Positions 9,618 through 46,925 of a stretch of 64,000 nucleotides of DNA are shown in pieces. Made by a program: the position numbers and the translations under genes. Below the pieces are notes generated by a model. That model searched no databases and was not told the DNA's origin. It saw only the letters and a program-made list of their open reading frames with translations. This DNA is from a virus (lineage: Duplodnaviria; Heunggongvirae; Uroviricota; Caudoviricetes): the IMG/VR virus record IMGVR_UViG_3300027608_000011. The stretch is one strand, 5' to 3'. The stretch's first letter is position 1, and every line of letters starts with the position of its first letter.

Positions 9618-9619
9618 TC

Positions 9620-10362: not shown

Positions 10363-10363
10363 T

Positions 10364-11326: not shown

Positions 11327-11331
11327 AACAC

Positions 11332-23245: not shown

Positions 23246-23258
23246 CTCAGGGATAGTA

Positions 23259-24173: not shown

Positions 24174-24426
24174 CCCAACAATACCTGACACTATTGTAGA
24201 TCCAGTAGCACTGGCCGAGCTTAAAAAATTAGCAGGGATAGACAGCCTAGGCATTATGGAAAGACATAGGGCATCCTCAGAAAGCCCTGTTGACGGACAC
24301 GTTGGCACAGACAAAGCTGAATATCAACGACAGCATAATATACGTCCAGGTACAGATGAATGGTTTAAACTGTGGTTTGCCCGTCAAAGTCTGACCGGTG
24401 AAGATCCTATGCCCAAAAAAAGTTGA
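24124..24426 (+). CDS. Small putative head-associated protein
   Basis: MKQYKITSE start resembles a T4 capsid-targeting sequence; LKKLAG; NIRPGTDEWFKLWF. Confidence 0.5.
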   Translation: MKQYKITSETFRSPGDDPTIPDTIVDPVALAELKKLAGIDSLGIMERHRASSESPVDGHVGTDKAEYQRQHNIRPGTDEWFKLWFARQSLTGEDPMPKKS

Positions 24427-24451
24427 CGGGGTAAGGTAAATACTGTATAAT
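24423..24451 (+). promoter_or_regulatory. sigma70-type promoter with an embedded TAAATA
   Basis: TTGACG-17 nt-TATAAT; TAAATA at 24437-24442. Confidence 0.7.
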
Positions 24452-24462
24452 AAGGAATCGCT

Positions 24463-25089: not shown

Positions 25090-25090
25090 C

Positions 25091-26194: not shown

Positions 26195-26243
26195 CAAAAT
26201 CAAATGAAAATAATTCAATAAATATAAGTTATTGGATCATATT

Positions 26244-28876: not shown

Positions 28877-29490
28877 TGCCATATAATACAAATATCCCCG
28901 GGCACATGAGTACCCAAGAATTGGCTGTAATCGAACAATGGGCCGCACAAGTTCCAAAAAACGGAGTTGTAGTCGAAGTAGGTAGCTTTTTTGGTAGGAG
29001 CGCAGTATGCTGGGCCATGTCATGTGATCCCAGTGTTGAAATAATATGTGTTGATCAGTTTCCTACTATTCTTCAAGTCCCACTTTCTTTTAAAGCGCAT
29101 CCTGGCAGTCCAACGCCCGGGGTTGATTACAGACTATGGGACATGTTTCGTGACAACACAAAAGAATACCCTAACATAACACCTGTACGTGGCCTAAGCC
29201 CATGGAAGATATCTTATCCAGGCAATTTAATTGATTTGTTTTTCTTAGACGCGGCACATACCAATCCCAGTGACTGGGACAACATTGTGTATTTTTCTAC
29301 TTTCCTAAAACCAGGTGCAATAATTGCTGGCCATGACTACGATAGTATGTTCCCTGACGTTGTTGAAAATGTACATAGATTAGAAAATATATACAATACC
29401 AAAGCAACATTTTATAAAGGCGGATGGTTATGGTCCATTACTATCCCCAATACTAATAAGTTAACAGACCATATAATTACTAATAAATGA
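28876..29490 (+). CDS. Class I SAM methyltransferase (Methyltransf_24-like)
   Basis: VEVGSFFGRS, FLDAAH and GHDY. Confidence 0.8.
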   Translation: MPYNTNIPGHMSTQELAVIEQWAAQVPKNGVVVEVGSFFGRSAVCWAMSCDPSVEIICVDQFPTILQVPLSFKAHPGSPTPGVDYRLWDMFRDNTKEYPNITPVRGLSPWKISYPGNLIDLFFLDAAHTNPSDWDNIVYFSTFLKPGAIIAGHDYDSMFPDVVENVHRLENIYNTKATFYKGGWLWSITIPNTNKLTDHIITNK

Positions 29491-29524
29491 AACATTCTGT
29501 ATTATTCAGTATAAATATATTACT

Positions 29525-29872
29525 ATGAGATTAAACGAACTTAAATCAGGAAGAAATACGCTAGGGCATACAGGTTCTGGGGATATTGAAATATCCAGAA
29601 TTGCCAGAAAAGCCCGTGCTATGTATCCTAATTTACAGCACGACGATTTAGAAGCCGTACTAAAATATCTAGACGTGGGATTAGACGGTGGCCAACGTGA
29701 AGTAGAAAAAATATCTAGAAGTGACGCAGAGCAAGAAAAAGATATTGATCACTTGGATCAAGAAGTTGATCAGTTAGATCGAGAAGTCGATGACTTAGAG
29801 TCCAAAGAAAAGACTGATAGAGATATTATTGCCGATTTACGCAATACCATTAAAATACTGCAAGCAAGATGA
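29525..29872 (+). CDS. Putative head-internal coiled-coil protein
   Basis: Follows TATAAATA; MRLNEL start; acidic heptads. Confidence 0.55.
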   Translation: MRLNELKSGRNTLGHTGSGDIEISRIARKARAMYPNLQHDDLEAVLKYLDVGLDGGQREVEKISRSDAEQEKDIDHLDQEVDQLDREVDDLESKEKTDRDIIADLRNTIKILQAR

Positions 29873-30279
29873 GATTATACGACCTACTCGAAGATGGTGA
29901 TACAAGTGCCGGGTCAATGGCAGTTGCAGTAATGCCTATAGGAACTATGCAACGTAGGATTCCTAGAAAAAAGAAAACAATAAAAGAAACGCCGATACAG
30001 CCAAATTTAGATGAGCCAACTAACCCTGACATATATGGCACAAAGGCAAATCCCAGTAATTTAAATTCACGTAGGTTACGTGCAATGGGACAATTAAAAG
30101 AGTTATCTAAACGTGCAGAGTCTGCAGAACAACATAATAGTTTAGAAATGTGGGAAAGCATCGTCGCTGATTTTAAAGAACTAACAATGAATATTGGCGA
30201 AATAGACCATGCTATTAATGAACTACGTGCATTACGAAAACGTGGCGGCATGTATAGCCGCGGAATCCCAAAACTTTAA
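29869..30279 (+). CDS. Putative head-internal protein
   Basis: MRLYDLLED start. Confidence 0.55.
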   Translation: MRLYDLLEDGDTSAGSMAVAVMPIGTMQRRIPRKKKTIKETPIQPNLDEPTNPDIYGTKANPSNLNSRRLRAMGQLKELSKRAESAEQHNSLEMWESIVADFKELTMNIGEIDHAINELRALRKRGGMYSRGIPKL

Positions 30280-30352
30280 TTATTTTATTTCTTTTTCAGC
30301 TAAATAATACATGAAAATCCCATTTAATGGGTACAAATCTGCGAGTTAATAT

Positions 30353-31774
30353 ATGAGTAAAAAATCAATGCAAACACAAATCATTGAAAGCGTATTGGAT
30401 GACACTGATGATGCTGGATTTATGGCAAAAAGTAATCTGTATAAGGCGATCAAAAACGGCATTCAATTACATAAGTTGATTACTGACACTGATCCTCTAG
30501 AGCCGTGGATTGCTGAAAAAATTAGCCTTGCATCCGATTACTTAGAAACTGTCAAGGACTATGTAGAATATAGAAATGTACACAACAACGAATTTACATT
30601 AGATGGTACCCGAGCTCATAGGCATCACGAATATGAAGAAAGTGCAATAAGCGAAGCAGAACAACAAGATCCTAATGCACAACAGGACCCAACACAAAAT
30701 CAACCAGCGGCGGCCGCTACTCCTGCTCCTGCACCACAAGCCGGTGCGTTAGCAACTGAGCCAGCTGTACCAACTGAAGTTGCTCCAGACCTAGGCAAGA
30801 TATTAGACGGTATTAAAAGAATTCAAAAGTATGCTAAATCTCGTGGTGACTTAGATCCTGAGTTTGACAAGGACAAGTTAGTCAAATTAATTAGTAAGAA
30901 GATAGAAGGTACCAGTCCGCAAGATGCAGAGAAGATTGCTAAATTTATATTTGACGGTGTTACTGAAAGTACAACCGTTAGAGTTGCAGAAGGCGGCACA
31001 AAAGATCGTCAATGGTCCAACAAAGACATGGAGAGGTTGCGTGTTGCCACCCGAGACTTTGATGATATAATGGCATCTGATGGACCTGACCAAACCAAGC
31101 ACGATTTAATTAAGAAGCGAATTCAAACAAAACCATTGGCAGGTCCTAAGGGCGTATTACCCGAAGAGCAAGGTGTAGCGGAAGGTGTAATGAAAGATAT
31201 ACATTTAGAATTATCGCAAATAGCAGAAGACGAAGACTACGATGCATTATATAATTTGATGTCGTCTGGCTCACCTGCAGGCAAATACGTGCAAAACATG
31301 GCCGAAGACATTACAATCGACAAGCGTTTACATCCAGATGATGACTTTGAGGAAATTCAAGAAGTGCTAATGGATCGTATAGTTGAAGAATTTGGCGGCG
31401 AAGATGTAGCCGAAGGTAATGGGGCTCATATGTTTGCCATGGGAGAGATTGTTTACCATGACAACAAAAAAGGTAAAGTAGATCGTCAAGAAGGTAACAA
31501 AGTATTTGTTCATATAGGCCATGGCGATATGGACGTGTGGCCAGCAGACGAAACAAGTATAGTCCGTCAAGGTGCTATTCCTACAATGAAAAAGCACATA
31601 GGACAAATGGGTAGAGGACTTAAAGGATTTGTAACTGGACGTCCTGAGTTAGAAGAACAAAATGTAATGGACGAGTGGGCACAATATAAATTATCAACCA
31701 CACGTTCTACTAGTAACGAATCGGTCGAGCAAGAAGTTCAAATGCGTATGTCTAAGATGTTTGGTAAAAAATAA
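30353..31774 (+). CDS. Modular putative head-internal polyprotein
   Basis: After TAAATA; RVAEG, EQGVAEG and EDVAEG junctions; P/A/Q linker. Confidence 0.6.
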   Translation: MSKKSMQTQIIESVLDDTDDAGFMAKSNLYKAIKNGIQLHKLITDTDPLEPWIAEKISLASDYLETVKDYVEYRNVHNNEFTLDGTRAHRHHEYEESAISEAEQQDPNAQQDPTQNQPAAAATPAPAPQAGALATEPAVPTEVAPDLGKILDGIKRIQKYAKSRGDLDPEFDKDKLVKLISKKIEGTSPQDAEKIAKFIFDGVTESTTVRVAEGGTKDRQWSNKDMERLRVATRDFDDIMASDGPDQTKHDLIKKRIQTKPLAGPKGVLPEEQGVAEGVMKDIHLELSQIAEDEDYDALYNLMSSGSPAGKYVQNMAEDITIDKRLHPDDDFEEIQEVLMDRIVEEFGGEDVAEGNGAHMFAMGEIVYHDNKKGKVDRQEGNKVFVHIGHGDMDVWPADETSIVRQGAIPTMKKHIGQMGRGLKGFVTGRPELEEQNVMDEWAQYKLSTTRSTSNESVEQEVQMRMSKMFGKK

Positions 31775-33060
31775 TGGCCGGACCCATAGCACCAACAAAG
31801 CCATTGCTACCCGGACAAAAGCCGCCGATGTCTGGTGCGCCAGGCCAGACGCCTGCTAATCCTAATGCTCCACAAGCGCCAGGCCAGCCGCCTGCTAATC
31901 CCAACGATCCTAATGCACAGGCCAATCCTAATGCGCCTGATCCAACTACTAAGGCTCCGGGTGAATCTTCGTTTAGTATTAAAACAGCACAAGATCCTAC
32001 TGGAACGTTCCATATATTCGCTAAAAGTGAAATGGAAGCAAAACAAAAATATGAGCAAATGGGTAAACCAATGGGCCCAGCAACTCAAGCATCAAAAGTA
32101 AATGAGGAATCAATCATGACATATCGAGAACGTGTAGAACAATTTCACAATGAATCTTTTCCAACGTTGGAAAATGCCATTGTAAATACATTACAAGAAA
32201 ACCTACTTGAAAATGGAGTAGATTATTACGTTGACAACGGAATTAAGACACGCATTAAACAAACAGCAGTAGATATTGTGGAAACATTATTACAGTACAG
32301 TAATGATTTTATTCCGTTTTACGTTGAAAGCAACGGAGAATATACTATTAAAATTGGTACATTAGAAGAAGAAACTTTAGTAGAAGCAGATGTTAGTATT
32401 CCTGACCCAACTAAAATTTCTGTTAAACAAAATGCCGCTGGCACATTTAAAGTGTATGTAGGTGAGAATATTGCAGATACATTCGATAGCATCAAAGGTG
32501 CTACGAAATTTGTACAAACTTTAGTGTCAGAGACACGAGCACAATTTGACGAATTGGACGAAATGTTCCAATATACTATCGGAGTAAGTATGGTAAACGA
32601 AGGCAAAAAGAAAATGGCTAAAGAAGGCAGTGCCTTTGATTGGCAATCTAAAACTGATGATGACAAACCAAAAGTTGGAAGTAAAAAACAAACTAGCAAA
32701 GGCGAAGTTGAATATACTGCTACTGGACAAATTCATCGTTCAAAACAAAATTATGGCGGAGCGCCTGATTCAGACGACAACGAAGAAGGCAAAGACAAAA
32801 ACGGTGAGCCACGTGGCCGCGGCCGTCCTCGCACAAGACCGTTGCCAGATCCTGATGCACCAAAGCGCGGTCGTGGACGTCCAAAGAAAGTCAAAGAAGC
32901 ACAAATTCAAATGGCTACTCTTAAGAAACAAGTTAAAGAAACTATTCGTAAGATTGAGTCGTTACCGTCAGGTCAACGCAATAGTGCAAAAGTAGCAGAA
33001 GTAGTACAAAAATTACACGAGTCTGTTAGTCGTGCTGTTCATGCCGCTCGTATGCTATGA
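31774..33060 (+). CDS. Putative head-internal protein with two AT-hooks
   Basis: PRGRGRPR and KRGRGRPKK; Pro/Asn/Gln-rich N-terminus. Confidence 0.6.
   Translation: MAGPIAPTKPLLPGQKPPMSGAPGQTPANPNAPQAPGQPPANPNDPNAQANPNAPDPTTKAPGESSFSIKTAQDPTGTFHIFAKSEMEAKQKYEQMGKPMGPATQASKVNEESIMTYRERVEQFHNESFPTLENAIVNTLQENLLENGVDYYVDNGIKTRIKQTAVDIVETLLQYSNDFIPFYVESNGEYTIKIGTLEEETLVEADVSIPDPTKISVKQNAAGTFKVYVGENIADTFDSIKGATKFVQTLVSETRAQFDELDEMFQYTIGVSMVNEGKKKMAKEGSAFDWQSKTDDDKPKVGSKKQTSKGEVEYTATGQIHRSKQNYGGAPDSDDNEEGKDKNGEPRGRGRPRTRPLPDPDAPKRGRGRPKKVKEAQIQMATLKKQVKETIRKIESLPSGQRNSAKVAEVVQKLHESVSRAVHAARML
31837..31911 (+). repeat. 39-nt imperfect tandem duplication (APGQxPANPNxPx)
   Basis: gcgccaggccag(a/c)cgcctgctaatcc at 31837 and 31876. 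Confidence 0.8.
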
Positions 33061-33209
33061 GATTGTTTGAGTTAATTGAATCGAGAAAAGAGAATACTAA
33101 AATATTCTCTCCTCAAGTTAAAGCTACGGAAAAAGCAAAAAATATCCCCGTTGGTAAATGGGGTACAAAACACCCATTCAATGGTAGATTAGTAGGCGAG
33201 GGATCGTAA
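33057..33209 (+). CDS. 50-aa putative head-internal protein (not in ORF track)
   Basis: MRLFELIESRKENTK...HPFNGRLVGEGS; ATGA overlap; carries the shared N-terminal motif. Confidence 0.7.
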   Translation: MRLFELIESRKENTKIFSPQVKATEKAKNIPVGKWGTKHPFNGRLVGEGS

Positions 33210-33210
33210 C

Positions 33211-33651
33211 ATGGAAGAATTAGTTCACTCAATGAAAGTTGTACAAGCCAGTACATTTGCTTTTTATTTAAAAACACATAACTTTCACTGGAATGTAGAA
33301 GGTCCAGACTTCCCACAATATCATAAATTCTTTGAAGAATTGTATACCGAACTATGGTTAGCAGTTGATCCAATCGCCGAACACATTAGAGCCCTTGGCG
33401 CATTTGCTCCTGGCAGTTTAGCTAGGTTTGCTGAACTAAGTGTAATCGAAGATGAATTAAAAGTGCCGGCTGGCCTAGCTATGATTGCCAAATTACATGA
33501 TGATAACGAGCAAGTCATTGGCACATTGTTTAAAGCATATGAGTATGCAAACGCAATGCAAGAAATAGGTCTGAGTAATTTTATTCAAGACCGTGTAGAC
33601 GTCCATAAAAAACATGCTTGGATGCTACGTAGTATTTTACGCAGAAACTAA
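33211..33651 (+). CDS. dps: Dps (mini-ferritin)
   Basis: KTHNFHWNVEG..F...H.FFEELY......D.IAEHIRALG; HKKHAWML. Confidence 0.93.
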   Translation: MEELVHSMKVVQASTFAFYLKTHNFHWNVEGPDFPQYHKFFEELYTELWLAVDPIAEHIRALGAFAPGSLARFAELSVIEDELKVPAGLAMIAKLHDDNEQVIGTLFKAYEYANAMQEIGLSNFIQDRVDVHKKHAWMLRSILRRN

Positions 33652-33679
33652 ATTAGTTTCGAACCCCGGGTAACTGCTG

Positions 33680-34006
33680 ATGTTACCAATTTTTATTACC
33701 AATATGCAAAAGTATAAACCACGCCATAAGGCGACCACTAAGTCGCGGCCGAATGAAAATATATCTCCTAATGAAATCCACCAATTGACTAAATTGTTCA
33801 GTGATGAAGAATTAACTATTGTCAAGAAACTGGCATTAAAGGAAATAGATTATAATAGCTCACCAGTGTCAGACGATATTCAAGATAAGTTATATGATTT
33901 CTTTCATAACAAAATGCCGTCAAATATAATTCAAAATGCATTTCAAAGTCCTGGCAACTGGATTGTTAATCGATTAAATAGCTTATATAGAAACACACTA
34001 CCTTAG
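33680..34006 (+). CDS. Hypothetical protein
   Basis: 108-aa ORF; start uncertain. Confidence 0.5.
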   Translation: MLPIFITNMQKYKPRHKATTKSRPNENISPNEIHQLTKLFSDEELTIVKKLALKEIDYNSSPVSDDIQDKLYDFFHNKMPSNIIQNAFQSPGNWIVNRLNSLYRNTLP

Positions 34007-34085
34007 GACCTTATGGTTTTCAGTGTGGGGCGGCTACTGCCCTGGAACAAGTAGGAGTCGTGCCCGAAAGTTCCTAAAGTGTGCA
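34005..34085 (+). ncRNA. Candidate structured intergenic RNA of unknown family
   Basis: GC-rich island in AT-rich DNA with three helices and a possible loop-loop pseudoknot. Confidence 0.4.
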
Positions 34086-34096
34086 TTAATTTAGTA

Positions 34097-34125
34097 TTGA
34101 CTCATTGGCCAGTTAATGCTATAAT
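34097..34125 (+). promoter_or_regulatory. sigma70-type promoter
   Basis: TTGACT-17 nt-TATAAT. Confidence 0.75.
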
Positions 34126-34133
34126 TACATGTT

Positions 34134-34760
34134 ATGAATATAATTGAAATTAATAAAGACCCAGCTATCATTGATGTTGAGTTTCCTGAATTTGAAAGAT
34201 TTGACACCGACAAGTTATTCGAAGCCGCACCTAGTAGAATTAATTATGGTGAGTTAGATGTGGAAGCGGAAAGACTTACTATACTTCCACTAAATGATAA
34301 CAATGAAGAATTTGATAATTTTAGCAAAGAATTATATACACCGTTACGTCTTATTACAAAAAAATTAATTGAGTTAGATCCTATACGATATCCATTGTTT
34401 GATAGTCCTAACTTTGATCTGTGGTATACTAAGCGTTTTGCAAGTCGAGTTAAAATAGGATTTAGTAGAATAATCGACAGCCCCGGATTTCACCAAAGCT
34501 GGCACATTGATAATAGATTTGTTTTGCTGTCAGGTATAATAAATCTACAAGACAATGAAACACAGACCCATTTTGCCAGCGAACGTATTATGCGCTGGAT
34601 GCCGGAACAAGTAGAGCATGAGTACCCAGAAAAAATCAGGCATCGCGGCCGAAATAAAAAATGGCAAGGTACATTCTGGCTTAATACTGAAACCCAATGG
34701 CATTGCGTACCACTAGTAACTACTACTAGAAAGATTTTATTGTGTAATTTATTCTTATGA
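34134..34760 (+). CDS. Putative 2OG-Fe(II) oxygenase-like protein
   Basis: WHIDN (HxD) ... WHCV distal His, followed by RK. Confidence 0.55.
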   Translation: MNIIEINKDPAIIDVEFPEFERFDTDKLFEAAPSRINYGELDVEAERLTILPLNDNNEEFDNFSKELYTPLRLITKKLIELDPIRYPLFDSPNFDLWYTKRFASRVKIGFSRIIDSPGFHQSWHIDNRFVLLSGIINLQDNETQTHFASERIMRWMPEQVEHEYPEKIRHRGRNKKWQGTFWLNTETQWHCVPLVTTTRKILLCNLFL

Positions 34761-35500
34761 AAAAATACTTTACTATTCCTTATAAGGTTCTGTACCTACA
34801 AATATTAGCACATCTAGGATTAGCTTATCAGTTGTTCTACGGAGACGTATGGATGTGGATAGTGTCACTGGTAGTATTTGTTATATCAGGATGCTTTGGC
34901 TTGGTAATGACGTATCATAGATTACTAGCACACAATAGTTGGCCAGCTAGTTCCACATATAGAAAGGTAGGTAGCCTATTAGGATCGTATGCTGGAATAG
35001 GCAGTCCAATGGTATGGACTGCGGTACATAGAGCCCATCATAAATTTGTAGATACTGCTAAAGATCCACATAGCCCCGAACACCTAGGCTTTGCCCGAGT
35101 GCAATTTTTAGGAATGTTTGGTCAAGCAGGCGGCGAACATATTATAGATATGTTAAGGGATAAGTTTCAAACTAATTTAAATCGTTACTATTTTCACTTA
35201 CATATATTAGTAGGTATAGTTTGGTTGGTTATTAATCCTGCATTGTTTATATGTGCATATCTTGCTCCAATGGCATTACTGTGGGAAATAGGTGGTAGCG
35301 TAAACACTATTAATCATTTGTTTGGTTACAAGAACAAAGAAAACTCCAAGCATCATGCCTACAATAATCCCATAACAGGATATATGTTTTTTGGGGAAGG
35401 CTGGCATGCTAACCATCACGATGACCCGTTAAATTATACAACTAAACAAAAGTGGTGGGAATTTGATCTTGCAGGACTGATGATCAAATTGGTTAAATAG
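34757..35500 (+). CDS. Membrane fatty-acid (delta-9-like) desaturase
   Basis: Three His boxes (YHRLLAH, HRAHH, WHANHH), NTINH and TM segments. Confidence 0.9.
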   Translation: MKKYFTIPYKVLYLQILAHLGLAYQLFYGDVWMWIVSLVVFVISGCFGLVMTYHRLLAHNSWPASSTYRKVGSLLGSYAGIGSPMVWTAVHRAHHKFVDTAKDPHSPEHLGFARVQFLGMFGQAGGEHIIDMLRDKFQTNLNRYYFHLHILVGIVWLVINPALFICAYLAPMALLWEIGGSVNTINHLFGYKNKENSKHHAYNNPITGYMFFGEGWHANHHDDPLNYTTKQKWWEFDLAGLMIKLVK

Positions 35501-35503
35501 TAC

Positions 35504-36163
35504 ATGCGCCACGAAGACTTTCTATCAGAATACGACGAATCATCTAAGAATAGTAAGCAAATCATATCTAAATTAAAAGAATTAGGATATGATATGCTAG
35601 GGTCCGGCTACGATTCTACTGTATGGAGTAAAGATGCTGGCAGTGTTATTAAAATTATAATGCCCAGTGATGTAGTTCGTGCTGAGGGAGATTCTGCTTT
35701 TGTAAATTTCTACGAATTTTGTAAGGCAAACTCTAGTCCATTTTTACCAAAGTTTATTAGTATAGGCGGCGAGGATCATACAGTGTTTACGCTAAACGAT
35801 GTCCCGTACAGACAAATATCCATGGAAAAACTTAAACCCATACCAGTTAATACATTTAACGAACAAATGGTGTGGGCATTATCTGAATTGGCTGTTGTGC
35901 CATTTATTAAATGGCGTGATGCAAAAAAACAAATCACCCAAGCTGAATTTTGGAAACATTTCGAAGGGCCGGGTGATGAACAAGATGTAATAAGAAATTT
36001 AGCTAATCCTCAGACAGAGCATTTATGGTTATCGTTTCTAGATGTAATAAAAAAATTATATATCTTTGGTCGTGGACGCGGAATGGGCTGGGATTTACAT
36101 ACTGAAAATGTAATGATGAGAGGCGAGGTTCCTGTTATTGTTGACCCGTTCACAGGATCATAA
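35504..36163 (+). CDS. Protein-kinase-like enzyme with capsid-targeting-like N-terminus
   Basis: LGSGYDSTV, VIK, MEKL, DLHTEN and VDP; MRHEDFLSE start. Confidence 0.8.
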   Translation: MRHEDFLSEYDESSKNSKQIISKLKELGYDMLGSGYDSTVWSKDAGSVIKIIMPSDVVRAEGDSAFVNFYEFCKANSSPFLPKFISIGGEDHTVFTLNDVPYRQISMEKLKPIPVNTFNEQMVWALSELAVVPFIKWRDAKKQITQAEFWKHFEGPGDEQDVIRNLANPQTEHLWLSFLDVIKKLYIFGRGRGMGWDLHTENVMMRGEVPVIVDPFTGS

Positions 36164-36165
36164 TT

Positions 36166-39100
36166 ATGAAACTAAGAGAATTACTTGAAACAATTGTTAC
36201 TGAAAGTACACTAAGCGTTGATGTGCCAACTGAAGAATGGCTACAGGATAAAATTGATTACGCTAAGAAAAAAGGCCGCAACGAATACGGAGTTCCATAT
36301 ATGGGTAGCACCACTGCGTCAGTTCGTGGAACTCCGCCAAAGGTACGTGTAGTTAGATTGCACAGCCTTCGCGGTATGCGCCGTGAGCAAACCAATGTTC
36401 GCTACAATGATTTAAAGTGGTTAATGGACTACATGGATAAGAATAAGAAGTTACCGCCCATGGGTAGCAGTCCTGATAGTGAATACTTGCCTTACATTAT
36501 GGTTGCTTACAATGGTGAAGCATGGGTCAATGAAGGCAATCATCGTATTATGGCCGCATATAGATTAGGATGGGATACTATGCCCATTGAGATCAGATAC
36601 TTTGACGGCGGAGAGCGAGTAGAAGATGGTCCCATGTACCCGGGAAAAATAGGATTAGGTAATACACCAAAAGTTAAAGAGCAAGATGTTTCAGAAGCAC
36701 CGGCTGGATACAAAGAAATAGAATTTGTATGTGTTAATCCACAATTCCCAGATGCTACTGATCCTGCATTGCAGAAAAAGATGTATCGCGGACTAAAACA
36801 AATTGACGGAGTTGTTCCATTATGGCAAGAATGGGGTGATTACAGTGAAGGTCAGGCAAGTCTAAGTGCAATATATCAAGATTCTGACAGTCGTGATAAA
36901 ATATTATCACTGGCAAAACAACTGGGTGTTGAAGTGGATCTAGAGCAAGCAGTATCAGCTGACTATGTTGACCGTGCCAGGCGCGGAGAGCACGAAGGCC
37001 AGCAAGGCGTGGCGGAAGGCTTACAGAATAATGGAATTAGTTTTCGTGTACAAAAGGGTAAAAATAAATTTGTCACTACCATGACAGTTAATAACGAGCA
37101 GGTGGGTGTATACCAATATGATGCTACTACAGGTCGTAGCATAGCCGAGGTTTATCCAGAATTCAAGGGCAAAGGATTTGGTAAATTATTGGTTTTACAT
37201 GCTATCTATACCGCGGCCAAATTAGGATTAGATTTCCAAGAAGATGAATCAAGAACTGCTGAGTATGATAATGTGTTAGACAGTTTGAGTAGCAACAGTT
37301 ATATTGTAGATGATGATGGATATTGGTACGTTACTGGTGAGGGCGAACAATACCTACAACAATCATTAAAACAAGGTGTGGCGGAAGGCTCTGTACAGAT
37401 TAGTGAATATAGAGATAGATTGTTGCAATATGTCAAGAGTCTGTTACCTAACTACCCGGAGTATGTTCTTAAAGATTGGTTGGTACCCAACAAAGGTGAC
37501 TTTAGCAATTTGCCAGACACAGATCTCAAAAATGGCATAATGGAAAAATTAAAGTTGGCAGGACTTACACCTAACACCAAATGGCAACTTGTACCCGATA
37601 TGAAGTTTACAATGGATATGTTTGAGCCAAAGACTAAGCAACGATTGATTGGTCGTGCCGGCGGCTCAAGTGATTTAGGTATGGGTATACCTCGAGACAA
37701 AGAAAGACACGCAACTCAAGCGGCCTTAGCACAACAACAAGGTGGTGTGCGTAAAGAACCAGTGCTATTAATAAAAACAGACAAGGGCTACGAATTGTTA
37801 GAAGGGTGGCATAGAACTATACAACACTTTGCCAAGTATCCCAACGGTTATACAGGGCCTGCTTATGTGGCAGTTGCACAGCAAGGTGTGGCGGAAGCAC
37901 GTAGTAACCCAGAGCAGAATGTCAAGTACGAGTCCGGCATGAAAGAATTGGTGGCTGTTGCCAACTCTATTGCAGATACAGAAAACTGGGCCATTAGCAT
38001 GACCAGTGAGGCCAAGCTAGGCATCAACCCGCAAGTGGGCATCAGTGAAGACACACCCAAAGGCATTTACTTCTATCCACTGGACTATGCTGTAGACTTT
38101 GCCCGCCGCGGTAAAAAATTACCCTGGGGCCATGACTACCTTTATATTCAGTTGTTTCAATATGACCGTTCAGGTGAAATGACAAAAGAAACATCTGTAG
38201 ATTCTAATAAACTAAAACAAGCATTGCTTCAATATTGTCCTGAAGATGTAATTCAACAGGCCATAGACGAACCCGAATACGATGGTACACCATATTATTT
38301 CATTTACGATTGTTTAAGCAGACTGGGAAAAAGCGACGAAACTAATGTTGTTCGTTGGAACAAGGTCCTGCGTGATCTAGGCTTTACCAGTGTGTTTGAC
38401 GACGGGCATGGATGGATTGCCCACAATGAACCCACGCAAGGTGTAGTACTAGATCCAAGAGTTATCAAACAACTCAAGACTATTAGTAATAAAAAACAAT
38501 CAAAATTAATTACACCTGCTGTGATTGAACGGGCCATATTTGAGACTATGGACATGGAGTTAGCCGCTAGTAGATCATGGCAAGCATATGATCCAGACGG
38601 CAGTAAACTTAGAGCGGCGGCCAAGGAGTATGCCAAGAAACCTGAATTCAAACAGTGGTTTGGAAAACAAGCCACAGAAGAAATATTTGATAAGGCGGCA
38701 AGCTGGGGCAGATATGGTGCAAGACAATTGAGCCAAGAAGCGTGGGCTTGGTATAAAGAACAACAAGCTCAACAACCAGTTAAACAAGAAAGTTTAGAAG
38801 AGGCTCCATTGGCTGATTACGAGCCATTGGGAGACTTTACTAAGCCCGGACCGTTCACAGGTGCGGATAAAAAATTAATCCCACATCCGGCTAATCAACT
38901 TAAAGCTGAACAATTCTTTTCCAAGACGCCGTATGATATTAGATTATTCTTTAGTAACCTTACTGGTACAGGAAAATACAGTGAGTATGGTGTTATGGCC
39001 CCAGATGTGTTAAAGATAATATTTGGTGACGATGCTGATAAAATTATCAATGGACACGATGATGCAATCACAGTGGTATATGTTGGCAACAAAGGCGACA

Positions 39101-39627
39101 GCAAAAAAATGCTGACTCCTTGGGTTATGGCACATCGATTAGGACACGCTATACAAGCCGGAGTTAGATCAAAGGGATTGGGTCGCAAAGATCCTGATCA
39201 TCCATGGGCTCGTGGTGAAGATCATTTCTTTAAAGCAGTTAATTCTATGTTAGAAGAACACTATGGTAAACGTGGTACAGCCGGCGGTGACTTAAAATAT
39301 GAACTTACTCCAGAATATAACGCATTGTTTAATGCTATGGGAACACAACGAAGTAGTCGCAGTAACGAAATCCGCAGACCATATGAATTTTTATATGAAA
39401 TATTTGCACAATATCTAGGAACTGGAAAAGTTACATTTAACCCGTTACCAGCTAATTTAGCATACGGACGCAAAGCGTGGGGAAATCCCACTAAGTATAT
39501 GAACATTAAGCCGGAATATAAAGAAGAAACTGACAGGCATCAAATTGCAGATCAGTTGGCATACGACATGGAACTAATGTTTAATGACGTAATGAGTCAG
39601 ATGGTTGGTAAAATTTTAGTAATGTAA
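36166..39627 (+). CDS. 1153-aa polyvalent head-internal polyprotein (ParB-like, unknown, GNAT, ParB-like, unknown, zincin-like)
   Basis: EGNHR, VYPEFKGKGFGKLL, EGWHR, TPKGIYFYPL and HRLGH modules; the first five are separated by QGVAE/QDVSE repeats, the last by SLEE. Confidence 0.75.
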   Translation: MKLRELLETIVTESTLSVDVPTEEWLQDKIDYAKKKGRNEYGVPYMGSTTASVRGTPPKVRVVRLHSLRGMRREQTNVRYNDLKWLMDYMDKNKKLPPMGSSPDSEYLPYIMVAYNGEAWVNEGNHRIMAAYRLGWDTMPIEIRYFDGGERVEDGPMYPGKIGLGNTPKVKEQDVSEAPAGYKEIEFVCVNPQFPDATDPALQKKMYRGLKQIDGVVPLWQEWGDYSEGQASLSAIYQDSDSRDKILSLAKQLGVEVDLEQAVSADYVDRARRGEHEGQQGVAEGLQNNGISFRVQKGKNKFVTTMTVNNEQVGVYQYDATTGRSIAEVYPEFKGKGFGKLLVLHAIYTAAKLGLDFQEDESRTAEYDNVLDSLSSNSYIVDDDGYWYVTGEGEQYLQQSLKQGVAEGSVQISEYRDRLLQYVKSLLPNYPEYVLKDWLVPNKGDFSNLPDTDLKNGIMEKLKLAGLTPNTKWQLVPDMKFTMDMFEPKTKQRLIGRAGGSSDLGMGIPRDKERHATQAALAQQQGGVRKEPVLLIKTDKGYELLEGWHRTIQHFAKYPNGYTGPAYVAVAQQGVAEARSNPEQNVKYESGMKELVAVANSIADTENWAISMTSEAKLGINPQVGISEDTPKGIYFYPLDYAVDFARRGKKLPWGHDYLYIQLFQYDRSGEMTKETSVDSNKLKQALLQYCPEDVIQQAIDEPEYDGTPYYFIYDCLSRLGKSDETNVVRWNKVLRDLGFTSVFDDGHGWIAHNEPTQGVVLDPRVIKQLKTISNKKQSKLITPAVIERAIFETMDMELAASRSWQAYDPDGSKLRAAAKEYAKKPEFKQWFGKQATEEIFDKAASWGRYGARQLSQEAWAWYKEQQAQQPVKQESLEEAPLADYEPLGDFTKPGPFTGADKKLIPHPANQLKAEQFFSKTPYDIRLFFSNLTGTGKYSEYGVMAPDVLKIIFGDDADKIINGHDDAITVVYVGNKGDSKKMLTPWVMAHRLGHAIQAGVRSKGLGRKDPDHPWARGEDHFFKAVNSMLEEHYGKRGTAGGDLKYELTPEYNALFNAMGTQRSSRSNEIRRPYEFLYEIFAQYLGTGKVTFNPLPANLAYGRKAWGNPTKYMNIKPEYKEETDRHQIADQLAYDMELMFNDVMSQMVGKILVM

Positions 39628-39637
39628 AGGATAATAT

Positions 39638-40024
39638 ATGAGAGCACACGAATTATTTGAAGATGGGTACCATGAAGAAAAGCAACCCAGATGGGGACAA
39701 GATCGTGCCAAGATTGATATCATTGGTTTGGGCCATTTGATCCTGGCAGGAACAGTACCAGTAGGAAAAAATGCAGTTAGTAGTATCAAATCTTTGTCCA
39801 GTGTAGGCATAACCTTTGCAGATTTACATACTAGATTAGAAGAATTTTACAAAGAAAAAGAAGACAGCGAAGCCGATTGTATACCAATCATTAAAAAATG
39901 GTTACTGACACATAAGCCACATATTGCACAAGAGCTACACAGTGAACATTGGGAAACAACCCCAAAAAGTTCATCAATGATGAGCAGTAAACAAACGCAA
40001 CATCCTCCCACGGCTACTAGTTGA
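39638..40024 (+). CDS. Small putative head-internal protein
   Basis: MRAHELFED start; AGGA ribosome-binding site. Confidence 0.55.
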   Translation: MRAHELFEDGYHEEKQPRWGQDRAKIDIIGLGHLILAGTVPVGKNAVSSIKSLSSVGITFADLHTRLEEFYKEKEDSEADCIPIIKKWLLTHKPHIAQELHSEHWETTPKSSSMMSSKQTQHPPTATS

Positions 40025-40065: not shown

Positions 40066-41712
40066 ATGCGCCCATACATACACACCAATCCCCTAACCAC
40101 CACTGAAGTTACCAAAATACAGGAGTCTAGCACTGAATGGCTTAATGCCCAAAGTCCTAGCATGTGTTTAGCCAAGTGGTATCACGTTAGTTTACATTTA
40201 ACTAACGGACGTACCCATAGCTGTTATCACCCTCCTACACATAAAATTAACATAGAAGATATCAAATACAAAGCCAGTGCATTACATAACACTGACCAAA
40301 AAATTATAGAGCGTAAACAAATGCTCCGCGGAGAGAAGCCAGAAGGATGTAAGTACTGCTGGAGTTTAGAAGATCAAGGTAACCTTAGCGACCGTCACTA
40401 TCGTAGCAGTGAACATTGGGCATTGCCGTACAGAGATAGTGCGTCTGTTAATTTAGAACCCAATCCAACTTACGTAGAAGTAAACTTTAATCAAAGTTGC
40501 AATTTTAAATGTAGCTATTGCAGTCCGCATCTAAGTACAGCCTGGGAAGAAGAAATTAAAGAATTTGGTCCGTATCCCACCAGTGCTCCACACAATGCTA
40601 TCCAAGCATTGGATACATTAGAACTAATGCCACTCAAAGTAGCAAACAAAGACAATGCTTATGTAGAAGCGTTCTGGAGATGGTGGCCAGAATTATATAA
40701 CACATTGCTAGTATTTCGTATGACTGGTGGTGAGCCGCTAATGGATAAGAATACGTTTAAGGTGCTGGACTATGTTGCTAATAATCCCAAAGGCGATTTA
40801 GAGATTAGCATTACCAGCAACATGGTGCCGCCTGATCCTAAGTTAATGGATAAGTTTATTAATACTATACAAGACATAGAAAAATATACTGCCAGTGCAA
40901 CAGTAGTTGCTATAAACAATGGAAAGAAAAGTCACGATAAATGGCCAAGGCATGTGTTAAACAAATCTAGTGTTAACGCAGATACCTTACACAGATTACA
41001 GATTAATGGGTTACCAAATACTAACAGTATTCCCGACGATGGCAGTTTCGGTTACGAGTTAACAACTACCAAAGCATGTCGACATGTTGGTGTATATGTT
41101 AGTTGCGACAGTGTAGGAGAACAAGCGGAATATATACGCTATGGTCTCGAGTACGCCACATTGATTAATAATGTAAAGCGTGTGTTATACGATACGCATA
41201 TGACTACTATTACTTTTATTAATACTTTTAATATTTTAAGTATTCCTAAATTACAACAGTATTTAGAAATGATTCTAGAAATGCGTAGGTATGTTAATAC
41301 CCTTAAGGATATTCCTGAAAAGAATCCAACATATAATAATTTCTGGAGTCGACAGCGTGTATGGTTTGATTTGCCAACGTTACGTACCCCAGTATGGTTA
41401 ACTGTGCAAACATTACCCAGCAATATGTATGTGTTATTAGATAATGCATTAAAATATATGTCAGCCAATTCTACAGATGTACACGGAGATTTAATAGGAT
41501 TTGCAGATTTTGAAATAGATAAACTCAAACGAAATATCGATTGGATGAAATCCAGTTTGCTATCGGAATCGCAAAAACAATTATTACGTAGTGATTTCTA
41601 TGCATTTTTTAAAGAGTATGATTATAGAAAGAATACTAATTTTGTGAAGACATTCCCAGAGCTACAGCTTTATTGGAAGCAATGCGAGAACAATTATAAT
41701 GCAAGAACCTAA
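40066..41712 (+). CDS. Radical SAM enzyme with N-terminal twitch/SPASM-like Cys cluster (#1)
   Basis: CNFKCSYC, TGGEP; N-terminal C..KW...SCYHP...CKYCW. Confidence 0.9.
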   Translation: MRPYIHTNPLTTTEVTKIQESSTEWLNAQSPSMCLAKWYHVSLHLTNGRTHSCYHPPTHKINIEDIKYKASALHNTDQKIIERKQMLRGEKPEGCKYCWSLEDQGNLSDRHYRSSEHWALPYRDSASVNLEPNPTYVEVNFNQSCNFKCSYCSPHLSTAWEEEIKEFGPYPTSAPHNAIQALDTLELMPLKVANKDNAYVEAFWRWWPELYNTLLVFRMTGGEPLMDKNTFKVLDYVANNPKGDLEISITSNMVPPDPKLMDKFINTIQDIEKYTASATVVAINNGKKSHDKWPRHVLNKSSVNADTLHRLQINGLPNTNSIPDDGSFGYELTTTKACRHVGVYVSCDSVGEQAEYIRYGLEYATLINNVKRVLYDTHMTTITFINTFNILSIPKLQQYLEMILEMRRYVNTLKDIPEKNPTYNNFWSRQRVWFDLPTLRTPVWLTVQTLPSNMYVLLDNALKYMSANSTDVHGDLIGFADFEIDKLKRNIDWMKSSLLSESQKQLLRSDFYAFFKEYDYRKNTNFVKTFPELQLYWKQCENNYNART

Positions 41713-43105
41713 AACATATTATTCTAAATTATTAGAGACTAAAGAAAAACTCAATGCAGTTGGTAAGGGTTTTTGCCTAATGAAGTGGCAAACGGAAACG
41801 TTATATCTACACATGGGAGATAATCATAGCTGTTACCATCCGCGTCCACATAAAATATTGTTAAGTGATATTAAACGGAACCCCAGTGGATTACATAATA
41901 CTGCATTTAAAAAAGAACAACGTAAAGTTATGCTCGAAGGCGGGAGACCCAATGAATGTCAGTATTGTTGGAATGTAGAGGATCTAGAAGGGGATCATGT
42001 AAGTGATAGAATGGTGCATAGTACCAGTGATTATGCAATTAAAGACTATGATGCTATTCGTAATTTAGATGCGGATGCAGATTGGAATCCTAGACATATT
42101 GAAATTAGCTTTGGTAATGCTTGCCAACTTAAATGTGGATATTGTTGTCCCCAGGCCAGTAGTGCATGGATGGAAGAAATCAAACGTAAGGGAGATTACG
42201 ATATTACCACCAAACAATATAGCATTGACTTTTTAAAGTCAGGCGTATTTTACGAGCCAGACATGGAAAATCCCTATGTGGATGCATTTTGGGAGTGGTG
42301 GCCAACTTTAAAAAATGACTTAGAAGTATTTCGCATTACTGGCGGAGAGCCGTTACTTAACAGCAATACATTTAAATTGTTAGATATGTTAGATGATGAT
42401 CCTAGTCCACATCTGCAAATACATATTAACAGTAACTTAGGAATGAAGTCTAGCTTAGTAGAAAAGCTAAGTGCTAAAGTAAATAAGTTACTAACAGAAG
42501 GCAAGATTAAAGATTTTAGATTATTCACTAGTATTGACGGATGGGGAGAACGTGCAGAATATATGCGTAACGGTTTAGATTGTGCGTTATGGGAAAAGAA
42601 TGTTCGTATATTTTTAGATACTGTACCCAACAGTAAAATTAATTTAATGATTACATTTAATGTTCTCAGCGTTGTGCAATTTAGGCTTCTGTTAGATAAG
42701 ATTTCTAGTCTGCGTAAAGAGTATGGCACGTTGGAGAATATGCATACACAACGTATTGGCTTTGATACTCCGTACTTAAAAGAGCCGCCACACTGGATGA
42801 TTAATATATTGCCCAGGCAATATATGGATTTCATGCACGATCATTTACGTCATATGACTATTAATGAACGAACTGTTAACAACCAACACGGCTTTGATAA
42901 AGTAGAAATTGAAAAATTTAAACGTGTAGTTGATTACATGGGAGCCAGTAATGTTGATCCCGAAGTTATTAAACAAGGCCGTAGAGATTTTTACACGTTC
43001 TTTACAGAACATGACAAGAGAAGAAATGTTAGTTTACTAGATACATTTCCAGAATACACAGATTTTTATAATTTCTGTGAACAAGTATATAGGAATTACA
43101 AATGA
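41699..43105 (+). CDS. Radical SAM/twitch enzyme (#2)
   Basis: CQLKCGYC, TGGEP; SCYHP, CQYCW. Confidence 0.9.
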   Translation: MQEPKTYYSKLLETKEKLNAVGKGFCLMKWQTETLYLHMGDNHSCYHPRPHKILLSDIKRNPSGLHNTAFKKEQRKVMLEGGRPNECQYCWNVEDLEGDHVSDRMVHSTSDYAIKDYDAIRNLDADADWNPRHIEISFGNACQLKCGYCCPQASSAWMEEIKRKGDYDITTKQYSIDFLKSGVFYEPDMENPYVDAFWEWWPTLKNDLEVFRITGGEPLLNSNTFKLLDMLDDDPSPHLQIHINSNLGMKSSLVEKLSAKVNKLLTEGKIKDFRLFTSIDGWGERAEYMRNGLDCALWEKNVRIFLDTVPNSKINLMITFNVLSVVQFRLLLDKISSLRKEYGTLENMHTQRIGFDTPYLKEPPHWMINILPRQYMDFMHDHLRHMTINERTVNNQHGFDKVEIEKFKRVVDYMGASNVDPEVIKQGRRDFYTFFTEHDKRRNVSLLDTFPEYTDFYNFCEQVYRNYK

Positions 43106-44400
43106 GATTAATGAATTATGATGTACCGGCGTTGTATGGCCCGGGAGAAATTTCAGGCATGCACTTAGAATTAACAGACAAATGTAATGCTGGTTGTCCT
43201 ATGTGCCCGCGTTATATCAACAACGGCGCAGAAGTCAACCCTAATGTATTAGAAACAGAAATTACCCTAGAGCAATTTAAAACTTGGTTCCCTCCTAGTT
43301 TTGTTAAACAACTCAAACGTGTGTATGCTTGCGGCAATTACGGTGACCCAATTGTTGCCAAGGATAGTTTAAAGATCTTCCAGTACATGAGAGAACACAA
43401 TGACACTATGGCTCTTACATTGCACACCAATGCCAGTGCCCGTAGCTTGTCGTGGTGGACAGAGTTAGGTAAAGTAGTTAATAACTTTGAACGCGGTGAC
43501 TTTTGTGTATTCAGTGTGGACGGATTAGCAGACACTAACCCATTGTATAGACGTAATACAAACTTTGAAAAAATCTATGCAAATATGAAAGCGTTCAAAG
43601 CCGCGGGCGGTGTTGCAAAATGGGATTACATTGTATTCAAACATAATGAACATCAAGTGGAAGAAGCTAGGCAAATTGCCAAAGACTTGGGTTTTGAATT
43701 CTTTAATGTCAAACGTACCACACGTTGGCATAAATGGGACGAGCGCGGCCGCGGCTTTTTTGAAGTATATGATAAAACAAAAGAAATTACACACAAACTA
43801 GAACAGCCAGAGAATGAAAATTTTAGAGATAGTAATTTTAAAGAATTGAAGGGCGTTGGTATTGTGCCTATGTATATAACTAATCAAGAATTTGATAAGA
43901 TGAATCAGATTAGTTTAGAGCACAGAGAATGGGACAATCAGAAAAACGAATGGGTTTCATTTCAGCATAATAAAATTGAAGTAAGTTGCAGAGCACAACA
44001 TCACGAAAAGGGCGGCAACAACATGGTGAATGAAATATTTGTCAGTGCCAGCGGGCATGTATTTCCTTGTTGTTTTATTGGTGGTGAACCTTGGCGTCAT
44101 ATCAATGATGATCGTCCATGGGAAGTGGCTAAACAAGGTCCTGCATTTAAAGGTTCCAGTGATGATGCAAGTATGCAAATGATTGAACTAGCTGGCGGAC
44201 TAGATACATTAAGTCTGCACAAAAATACATTGACAGAAGTATTGCAAGGCCAGTTCTTTGATCGATATCTGCCGCGTAGTTTATACAAAGGACACAATAT
44301 GCGTAGCAGACAATGCAGTACATGTTGCGGTAAAGAATGGAATAAATTAGACAATGGTGAGTTAGGCACCCACCACAACAAAACTCATACTGATGAATGA
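43102..44400 (+). CDS. Radical SAM enzyme with C-terminal SPASM/twitch domain (#3)
   Basis: CNAGCPMC; C-terminal SC...GHVFPCC...CSTCC. Confidence 0.9.
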   Translation: MRLMNYDVPALYGPGEISGMHLELTDKCNAGCPMCPRYINNGAEVNPNVLETEITLEQFKTWFPPSFVKQLKRVYACGNYGDPIVAKDSLKIFQYMREHNDTMALTLHTNASARSLSWWTELGKVVNNFERGDFCVFSVDGLADTNPLYRRNTNFEKIYANMKAFKAAGGVAKWDYIVFKHNEHQVEEARQIAKDLGFEFFNVKRTTRWHKWDERGRGFFEVYDKTKEITHKLEQPENENFRDSNFKELKGVGIVPMYITNQEFDKMNQISLEHREWDNQKNEWVSFQHNKIEVSCRAQHHEKGGNNMVNEIFVSASGHVFPCCFIGGEPWRHINDDRPWEVAKQGPAFKGSSDDASMQMIELAGGLDTLSLHKNTLTEVLQGQFFDRYLPRSLYKGHNMRSRQCSTCCGKEWNKLDNGELGTHHNKTHTDE

Positions 44401-45742
44401 CATTAAAACACTAATTGAAGTACGTGATAAGTTAAACGAAGTTGGTAAGGGATTTTGTTTACTCAAATGGACACAACAAACGCTGTACTTGCAGACAGGT
44501 GATAACCATAGTTGTTATCATCCCTACCCACACAAAATTGCATTGACTGACATTCAGCGTAGTCCAGCCGGTATACATAATACTGCTCACAAAAAGGAAC
44601 GCAGAAAGCAAATGTTGTCCAATGAACGTCCAGACGAATGTTATTTTTGTTGGCAAGTAGAAGACAACGGACACATCAGTGATAGAATTATTAATAGTGC
44701 AAACGACATAACACAGTTTGACGTTATTAAAAACTTATCTAGTGAAGCTGATTACAATCCAAGTTTTATTGAAGTCAACTTTGGCAACGTTTGTAATTTT
44801 ATGTGCGGATACTGTACCCCTACTGTTAGTAACAGTTGGATCAACGATATTGCAAAGAACGGAGAGTTCCCAGTAAAAACAAATCAATACAAAATTGATT
44901 TTATCCGAGATCGAGAATATTACGAAAGTGACGATGAGAACAATCCTTACGTTAAAGCCTTTTGGGAGTGGTGGCCTGACCTTGTCAAGGATCTAAAAAC
45001 TCTAAGGATTACCGGCGGCGAACCCATGCTTAATCAAAACACATGGCAACTGTTGGATAAGTTAGAAGCAGAGCCGGCTCCACATTTAACTTTGTTGATC
45101 AACAGTAACTTAGGTGTTAAGCCTGGCCTAATTGAACGACTTAGTCAGCGTGTTCGAACACTGTTACAAAAGAAATGTATTAAAGATTATCGTATGCACG
45201 TTAGTATAGACACATGGGGTAAGCCGGCAGAATATATACGCTATGGACTGGACTGTGATATATTTGAAAAGAATCTAATAACTATAATGGATAATTTTAA
45301 AGATATCAATGCCAGTATAGAAATTATGGTCACATACAACAATTTAGTGTTACCTAGCTTTAGACAATTGTTAATTAAAATTCAAGAGTGGAGAAAATTA
45401 TACGGCGACCGCTTAGAATTTATTACTCCGCATCTTAAAGAGCCAGTCCACTGGAGTATTAATATCTTACCGAAAAGTTTTGTTAAATACATAGATAACG
45501 ATATTGAGTTTATGCAACAGCAGGGATTTAACCCAATTGAAATAGAAAGATTAGATAGGGTTCGTAGTCATATGATAAATTATACGTACCCCGTAGATGT
45601 AGAATACAACGCCAAATCAGATTTTTATAACTTCTTTACCGAACATGATCGCCGACGCGGTACTAATTTTATAGAAGTATTTCCGGAATACAAAGACTTT
45701 TTCAATGACTGCAAAAAATACACTCTGCATACTCCCATTTAA
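44393..45742 (+). CDS. Radical SAM/twitch enzyme (#4)
   Basis: CNFMCGYC, TGGEP; SCYHP, CYFCW. Confidence 0.9.
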   Translation: MNDIKTLIEVRDKLNEVGKGFCLLKWTQQTLYLQTGDNHSCYHPYPHKIALTDIQRSPAGIHNTAHKKERRKQMLSNERPDECYFCWQVEDNGHISDRIINSANDITQFDVIKNLSSEADYNPSFIEVNFGNVCNFMCGYCTPTVSNSWINDIAKNGEFPVKTNQYKIDFIRDREYYESDDENNPYVKAFWEWWPDLVKDLKTLRITGGEPMLNQNTWQLLDKLEAEPAPHLTLLINSNLGVKPGLIERLSQRVRTLLQKKCIKDYRMHVSIDTWGKPAEYIRYGLDCDIFEKNLITIMDNFKDINASIEIMVTYNNLVLPSFRQLLIKIQEWRKLYGDRLEFITPHLKEPVHWSINILPKSFVKYIDNDIEFMQQQGFNPIEIERLDRVRSHMINYTYPVDVEYNAKSDFYNFFTEHDRRRGTNFIEVFPEYKDFFNDCKKYTLHTPI

Positions 45743-46925
45743 TACTCTAAGCATAGGACAAAGTGGACATCAGCGTTTATGCTGTAATGCACTTAACGGA
45801 GGACTTAGTGGTGAGGGCTGGCCTGGCCCGGTAACACAACGACCTACATTGCAATGGCAACAGGGTCAGACTATACAAAAGATACGAGATGTAATGGTTG
45901 CTGGATATAAGCCATCCCAGTGTGAACGTTGCTGGGAATTAGAAAAGATGGGATCTGAAAGTTATCGACAAATTAATAACACATACAGATTTCCTGAAAG
46001 CTATGCTAAATTAGAAGCAGGCGACCAAACTGTTAAACTAGAAAGATTAGAATTAGACTTTGGTAACAAATGTAATCTTGCTTGCCGTATGTGTCACCCA
46101 TATAGTAGTAGTTTGCTGGCGCAAGAAGTTGCAAAAGATCCTGTAAATGCATATACAACTATTGATATTAAATTCCTAGAAGAAAACAGTTGGGTTAAAC
46201 GTAGTAGATTGTTTGATGTTGTCCGTGAACAAGGACATGATTTAAAGAGCGTGTATATAATTGGTGGTGAGCCATTGATTATGGATGAGCAAGAAGAATT
46301 CTTAGATTTACTTATAGAATTAGATTTTGCTAAAAATATTTCATTGGAGTATAATAGCAACATTACAACTATTGGAAAAAAATGGTACGACAAGTGGAGC
46401 AACTTTAGAGAAGTTAATTTAAATGCTAGTATTGACGGAGTAGGATCAATATATGAATATGTACGTTGGCCTGCGAAGTGGGATAAAATTTATAACAATT
46501 TAAAAGAGCTACAGGATTGGCATAAACAAGACACAACTAAAAACAAAGTATGTGTTCACTCCACGCTTAGTAATTTAACTGTCCCGGGCATTGCCGAAAC
46601 AGCTGACATACTAATAGGAGAAATGAATTTTAATATATTTTTTATTAATGTAGATCATCCCACTTGTATGCGACCTGAAGTACTACCGGCAAAGGTTAAG
46701 CAGACCCTTGCCCGTACGGGAATAGAACATATTCAAAAGAACTTTAAGGATCATTATTCATTGTCAAATGTTGTCAGAACATTAGAGCGTGTAGTTGCCA
46801 GTAGTGAGCCCAGTGAACAAGACAAAATAGATTTTATAAAAAGAATGAATTACATGGACAAGCATCGTAAGCAAAATCTATTAGATTTACATCCGTGGTT
46901 TGAGGAATGGTATGTACATCAATAA
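45705..46925 (+). CDS. Radical SAM/twitch enzyme (#5)
   Basis: CNLACRMC, IGGEP; LC.LPF...LCC, CERCW. Confidence 0.9.
   Translation: MTAKNTLCILPFNTLSIGQSGHQRLCCNALNGGLSGEGWPGPVTQRPTLQWQQGQTIQKIRDVMVAGYKPSQCERCWELEKMGSESYRQINNTYRFPESYAKLEAGDQTVKLERLELDFGNKCNLACRMCHPYSSSLLAQEVAKDPVNAYTTIDIKFLEENSWVKRSRLFDVVREQGHDLKSVYIIGGEPLIMDEQEEFLDLLIELDFAKNISLEYNSNITTIGKKWYDKWSNFREVNLNASIDGVGSIYEYVRWPAKWDKIYNNLKELQDWHKQDTTKNKVCVHSTLSNLTVPGIAETADILIGEMNFNIFFINVDHPTCMRPEVLPAKVKQTLARTGIEHIQKNFKDHYSLSNVVRTLERVVASSEPSEQDKIDFIKRMNYMDKHRKQNLLDLHPWFEEWYVHQ

Follow-up and report, generated by a model that had tools for sequence, protein, structure and literature searches.

A phage protein of 1153 residues as a probable capsid-targeted polyprotein built from exchangeable modules

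How do six modules come to be strung together in a single phage protein, and do they stay joined? The question is raised by an open reading frame of 1153 codons in a 64,000-nucleotide stretch of tailed-phage DNA (IMG/VR record IMGVR_UViG_3300027608_000011, Caudoviricetes; the whole stretch is called the window). An earlier note on this DNA had described the product as a polyvalent conflict protein of six delimited modules. The open reading frame was confirmed at 36166–39627, and its motifs were found at the positions quoted: EGNHR at 36532, the GNAT motif at 37150, EGWHR at 37801, TPKGIYFYPL at 38053 and the start of module 6 at 38803. Four assembled contigs carry the identical protein. We consider it likely that this is a capsid-targeted polyprotein from a jumbo phage of the T4 superfamily: the prohead protease would cut it into effectors for injection, and recombination on short homology would shuffle its modules. 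Its parts are given here, with a slash marking the module start at each joint:

36166–39627, plus strand: polyprotein open reading frame, 1153 residues, six modules (M1–M6), five internal joints
36166–36204, plus strand: N-terminal leader of 13 residues ending V-T-E (with L-L-E also at residue 8), capsid-targeting-like by sequence
36205–36681, plus strand: M1, ParB/Srx-like (E-G-N-H-R); PHROG ParB E 0.0017, SbnI/ParB E 0.03–0.6, ddrB-ParB E 0.0034 in one member
36680–36698, plus strand: joint 1, QDVSE/A; degenerate repeat, 14/19 to consensus; V-x-E
36697–37002, plus strand: M2, about 102 residues, no family match; conserved YKEIEFxC start; 15 loci, solo and fused
37001–37019, plus strand: joint 2, QGVAE/G; DNA repeat 18/19; V-x-E
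37018–37371, plus strand: M3, GNAT-like acetyltransferase (motif A); Pfam GNAT families E 0.002–0.03, below cut-off
37370–37388, plus strand: joint 3, QGVAE/G; DNA repeat 18/19; V-x-E; a second site, I-S-E at residue 414, is the start of solo M4 genes
37387–37881, plus strand: M4, second ParB-like module (E-G-W-H-R); PHROG ParB families E 0.003–0.004 in 12 and 9 of 58 members
37880–37898, plus strand: joint 4, QGVAE/A; DNA repeat 18/19; V-x-E
37897–38775, plus strand: M5, ADP-ribosyltransferase (ART)-fold core (about residues 603–777) and variable helical C-terminal domain; AlphaFold predicted local distance difference test (pLDDT) 81
38783–38802, plus strand: joint 5, QESLEE/A; L-x-E alone, 9–10/19, no DNA repeat
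38803–39627, plus strand: M6, 274 residues, invariant HRxGH (H990, H994), E1074 and E1078

The window looks like a portion of a jumbo phage genome. It encodes a family B DNA polymerase, a ClpA-like ATPase and UvdE, and the polymerase is 57–66% identical to the polymerases of five viral records of 210–353 kb. These five records, two of which are complete, are referred to as the relatives; the part of the window's own genome that lies beyond the window is not among them. A tblastn search of cultured-phage records gave no match, and the junction of M1 and M2 had no match in the metagenome search.

Searches with the single modules yielded 6 to 44 viral loci each and hundreds of proteins overall. 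Every module was found as a solo gene or fused in other orders, e.g. M4-M1, M3-M1 and M5-M3. By these homologs the six modules of the earlier note are independently mobile units; M5 itself comprises two domains, which gives six mobile modules and seven domains. Modules thus pass from solo genes to chains and back; they stay in frame in every case, and nearly all of them stand directly after V/I/L-x-E.

In the protein, five of five joints are marked by [V/L]-x-E. The residue preceding M5 is Glu in 76 of 78 distinct contexts and that preceding M6 in 90 of 90, with V, I or L at position −3 in 74 of 78 and 81 of 90, respectively; the background frequency of [ILVM]xE is 1.5% per position. The remaining modules show a similar pattern at their starts, and the spellings are diverse (VAE, ITE, VDE, LNE, ISE, LEE). 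Solo genes begin with a leader of the consensus M-R-A-x-E-F-[I/L]-x-E (119 distinct leaders of nine residues), which ends at the same residue as the internal joints. The consensus resembles the T4 capsid-targeting sequence (CTS) MKTYQEFIAE (10.1101/2021.01.19.427310), in which residues 4 and 7 serve targeting and residues 8 and 10 processing (PMC9026906). Glu is the residue before the cuts made by the T4 prohead protease gp21 and its homologs from giant phages, e.g. in ITE and LTE of Alt (PMC5694885). A protease of this type (Peptidase_S77) is encoded by three of the five relatives, including both complete ones, and one relative has it upstream of a homolog of T4 gp23 (E 3e-40) that bears four [L/I]xE sites in its first 42 residues. 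Two solo M5 leaders (P0108, P0117) end in D, not E; in T4, Asp at that leader position stops processing yet allows packaging (PMC9026906).

Does the site reflect cutting, or could the six domains stay joined as in a classical polyvalent protein, with QGVAEG a mere flexible linker spread by recombination? The M1 family indeed extends into giant proteins of 1300–3900 residues, and the three that were checked showed LPD22 or LPD38 together with ART-PolyVal matches; moreover, cleavage is predicted here from the sequence alone, and conservation of the DNA could arise without selection on the peptide. The giant proteins also provide a control: of 69 close homologs, 65 have the site before M1, versus 1 of 20 proteins of at least 1300 residues. 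The fold itself therefore does not include the site, which accompanies the clade with the leader. As a sequence comparison, the control supports the polyvalent affinity of M1 and equally the view of the joints as cleavage sites. Numerous DNA spellings with no relation to one another yield [V/I/L]-x-E exactly at the module start, and solo leaders end at the same residue. An intact chain is thus an unlikely explanation.

At the DNA level, the QGVAEG spelling is, as a pattern, a repeat of about 17 bp at which modules swap. The earlier claim that domain boundaries can be read from the DNA holds for joints 2–4 and fails for joint 1, which is degenerate, and for joint 5, which has no repeat. The 16-mer has five matches in the window at no more than one mismatch versus 0.00 by chance, and the repeat pattern has at least 120 matches in viral contigs. 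Silent positions are conserved: in copies that were not used for locus selection, the GVAE codons are GGT in 96% (background 46), GTG in 85% (23) and GCG in 86% (10). A Chi-like dispersed motif was rejected, as 354 of 354 distinct exact 14-mers lie in the single GVAE reading frame.

Exchange at the repeat is seen in individual loci. In one (L159), M3 is 99.2% identical over 37001–37389 with unrelated flanks on both sides; in another (L153), M2 is 100% identical from 36680 as far as its contig reaches (36896), and the upstream DNA differs. At the edges of the repeat, the mismatch frequency rises from near background to 60–80% in 38 downstream-sharing and 60 upstream-sharing pairs, which are not independent of each other and in which the motif regular expression fixes some positions. 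Rough clustering assigned the sequences after 385 joints to about 268 different downstream modules. A 1055-residue chain at positions 8848–12015 of another locus (L252, G004) has eight GVAE joints and an M3 cassette 99% identical to that of the window. Chains (L165, L173, L186, L220 and a large number of P records) very often end in a short module that starts E/NFADG, a candidate for targeting or tethering at the C-terminus.

If a site-specific recombinase or nuclease were dedicated to the repeat, the outcome would be in-frame, integron-like cassettes, with the peptide layer unchanged. Such a system would fit the rare codons fixed in an AT-rich genome, the sharp breakpoints at a core of 14–17 bp and the large number of modules found downstream. 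In contrast to integron cassettes, however, the repeat is a direct, non-palindromic, coding sequence of 17 bp without attC-like folding (slight folding, on average 1.1 kcal/mol below shuffles, standard deviation 2.8). Mismatches in the core are not confined to a single side of a fixed crossover point, non-repeat joints exchange too, and neither a tyrosine integrase (PF00589) nor a reverse transcriptase was detected in the five relatives (two complete). We therefore regard a dedicated enzyme as improbable. RecA/UvsX is present in four of the five relatives. Short-homology recombination is the simplest reading of the exchange, which would most likely proceed by a UvsX/RecA-type route. It is rather doubtful that the joints form a clade-wide in-frame cassette system, in which the 17-bp sequence would be prohead-protease site and target of a dedicated recombination factor at once and jumbo phages would join hundreds of effectors, among them domains that polyvalent proteins also have, into programmable injected payloads.

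What might the modules do? The earlier note had labelled M1 and M4 as ParB-like and M3 as GNAT, and in each case the motif stood and the profile match fell short. Of the GxHR motif, G, N and R are invariant and H nearly so in the M1 family (74 homologs), and GWHR is invariant in 58 M4 homologs; profile matches to ParB families are weak and below threshold (E 0.002–0.6). M3 has a conserved acetyl-CoA motif A and matches the GNAT structure 1yvk from the PDB with E 0.019, and its Pfam matches lie below the cut-off. The ParB and GNAT assignments, drawn from motifs and weak matches, are accordingly tentative; M1 and M4 may act as ParB-like nucleases or nucleotidases and M3 may acetylate. An origin of M1 and M4 by internal duplication was not supported (hhalign of M1 versus M4 not significant). 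For M2, searches of Pfam, PHROG and Atlas gave no match.

M5 consists of an N-terminal core of about 200 residues, at the end of which several homologs stop, and a variable helical tail. The best match of its predicted structure was 9k3a_B, a pre-ejectosome protein of cyanophage A4 (Z 8.4, root-mean-square deviation (rmsd) 3.5, 148 residues aligned; Foldseek E 6e-5), followed by the anti-CRISPR 6kyf_A (Z 6.8, rmsd 3.5, 124 aligned), which we take to be the ART AcrIF11. ParT, MbcT, RES and tankyrase were lower-scoring matches, and hhalign gave a weak match to one ART-PolyVal domain (E 0.009 over 31 columns). The earlier guess of an ART-like module 5 is thus supported at the level of the fold, and the match to a pre-ejectosome protein, as far as a model can tell, would speak for injected cargo. 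Strand 1 carries S-M-T and strand 2 G-I-Y, and E755 and Q758 at the last core strand are invariant. In the model the catalytic positions look non-canonical, being neither H-Y-E nor R-S-E; the function of M5 may lie in ADP-ribosylation or in binding of nicotinamide adenine dinucleotide (NAD) or nucleic acids.

The zincin-like label of M6 is weak, and that of a metallopeptidase fails on the motif. M6 is C-terminal in 65 of 65 aligned homologs, all of which have HRxGH and two invariant Glu downstream. The zincin motif is HExxH with a catalytic Glu (PMC5512222). The M6 model (pLDDT 90) gave no significant fold match in the PDB, with zincin matches reaching only Z 3.4 (4l7a, 148 aligned, rmsd 5.3) and Z 3.1 (1yqy), and Atlas and BFVD returned uncharacterised relatives only. 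The modelled topology is at best distantly zincin-like. M6 may bind metal; lacking the catalytic Glu, it is unlikely to be a standard peptidase, which argues against self-processing by M6.

The same residue bears on whether a host or phage protease might do the cutting in the cytoplasm, or the modules be translated separately from Shine-Dalgarno-like internal starts, with no virion cargo involved. The purine-rich repeat does resemble a Shine-Dalgarno sequence, the window has a ClpA-like ATPase, and the locus adjoins no head genes there (none were recognized in the window). However, the leader matches the T4 CTS, and M6, the sole peptidase-like module, has no catalytic Glu. The positions after the repeat show no enrichment of in-frame start codons (ATG at most 2.3% at each of six positions), on which ground internal translation starts were rejected. 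Cytoplasmic production of the separate proteins is thus very unlikely.

In the capsid-targeted polyprotein that we favor, the leader would act like the T4 CTS and direct the precursor to the core of the prohead. A gp21-type protease would then cut after the E of [V/I/L]-x-E at residues 13, 177, 284, 407/414, 577 and 879 and release six proteins, which would leave the head together with the DNA and take effect in the host at an early stage. With a shared leader and swap sites, a single leader would serve to package many effectors, and further ones could be inserted.

Several observations weigh against this proposal. Sites of the form [ILVM]xE also occur inside M1, M3, M4, M5 and M6; cutting would therefore depend on accessibility. 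The protease evidence comes from the relatives and not from the window's own genome. The enzyme assignments are weak, with M5 and M6 having no canonical catalytic residues. As to the exchange, a homology of 14–17 bp is short for RecA-type recombination, VAE is used at only about a quarter of the internal joints, the interdependence of the compared pairs and the fixed motif positions temper what the repeat edges show, and joint 5, which has no repeat, gives rise to fresh fusions as well; one protein (P0017) has the same tail as that before joint 5 (QQPVKQESIEE) and then a different module. From these fusions, the peptide site looks primary and the DNA repeat a secondary accelerator.

The leader pattern was found in seven window genes, all of which lie within 22307–40024, and this clustering suggests, by sequence pattern, a head-cargo island. 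The polyprotein neighbors CTS-leader genes, a ferritin, a desaturase and radical SAM genes. The following genes carry such leaders or joints:

22307–23245, plus strand: protein with CTS-like leader and one GVAE joint
27482–28876, plus strand: further polyprotein, GP88 (PF17338) module after two GVAE joints
30353–31774, plus strand: further protein with GVAE and DVAE joints
35504–36163, plus strand: solo kinase-like gene with CTS-like leader, 2 bp upstream of the polyprotein; GSGxxxxV, WDLHxENVM and DP; weak Kinase-PolyVal match, E 0.067
39638–40024, plus strand: gene for 128 residues with CTS-like leader (MRAHELFE), downstream of the polyprotein

GP88 is also present in a giant polyvalent protein (P0375). 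Similar gene starts at 26244 and 29525 were missed by the leader pattern. Inside the candidate island, a ferritin-like gene and a fatty-acid desaturase gene occupy 33211–35500. Beyond it, 40066–49213 holds about seven tandem genes for 400–550 residues, several with radical SAM matches, and at 11332–14401 the gene of the ClpA-like ATPase directly follows one whose N-terminus looks DnaJ-like by eye.

How does the locus relate to known systems? Literature searches (QGVAE, polyprotein/prohead protease) found no description of such a system; among the matches listed for QGVAE were only papers on synuclein and other unrelated subjects. To the system the locus contributes large enzyme-like modules, an exchanging non-repeat joint and the polyvalent-protein control. 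If the proposal is true, hundreds of candidate proteins for injection, with anti-defence or host-takeover roles, can be delimited to the exact domain by means of the motif (this sample has about 268 module families) and each tested by itself, and polyprotein processing becomes a delivery route for a shuffled effector library in tailed phages. The capsid-targeted internal proteins of T4 and the polyvalent proteins, known separately, would become linked, and the system makes it testable whether a protease site can turn into a recombination joint.

Polyvalent proteins combine 2–15 conflict domains per polypeptide (Iyer et al. 2017, PMC5512222). The 1153-residue protein shares with them the multidomain build and ParB-like, GNAT-like and ART-fold domains, and its M1 family occurs in proteins with LPD38, LPD22 and ART-PolyVal. 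It differs in the protease-like site at every joint, the lack of an HExxH peptidase and modules that also occur solo behind a CTS-like leader. The protein itself gave no LPD or MuF match and no PolyVal Pfam model above cut-off. The passages of PMC5512222 consulted here mention processing of polyvalent proteins for P1 DarA and DdrB only. Thus, of the earlier assignment as a polyvalent conflict protein the domain repertoire stands, whereas the joints point to a cleavable polyprotein in place of an intact chain; as judged from its sequence, the protein fits the broad definition and probably differs in being cut apart.

The T4 internal proteins are injected inhibitors of host defence (PMC12373910, PMC3012670). 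Ip1–3 and Alt share with the system described here a leader of the form ...E-F-I-x-E, the cut motif [I/L]-x-E and a variable repertoire, together with an S77 protease and a gp23-like capsid protein in the window's relatives (PMC3012670, PMC9026906, PMC5694885, PMC12373910). The T4 internal proteins are encoded by separate small genes and cut once, whereas here chains of up to about ten modules stand behind one leader, with internal sites, enzyme-like domains and shuffling at a coding repeat; one small protein per gene, cut once, does not describe a 1153-residue chain with five internal joints.

With the PeSL cassettes of RB49 and phi1 (PMC2839356), too, T4-type phages gain, lose and exchange accessory genes at repeats, and there, too, no dedicated recombinase has been identified. 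PeSLs are intergenic promoter-terminator elements of about 100 bp, whereas the repeat described here has about 17 bp, lies in frame within coding sequence and would at the same time be a protease site. The ejection proteins of phiKZ and SPN3US (processed by gp175/gp245, PMC5694885) have in common with the proposed polyprotein the extensive cutting of ejected head proteins after Glu; there it takes off propeptides, whereas here it would part unrelated functional proteins.

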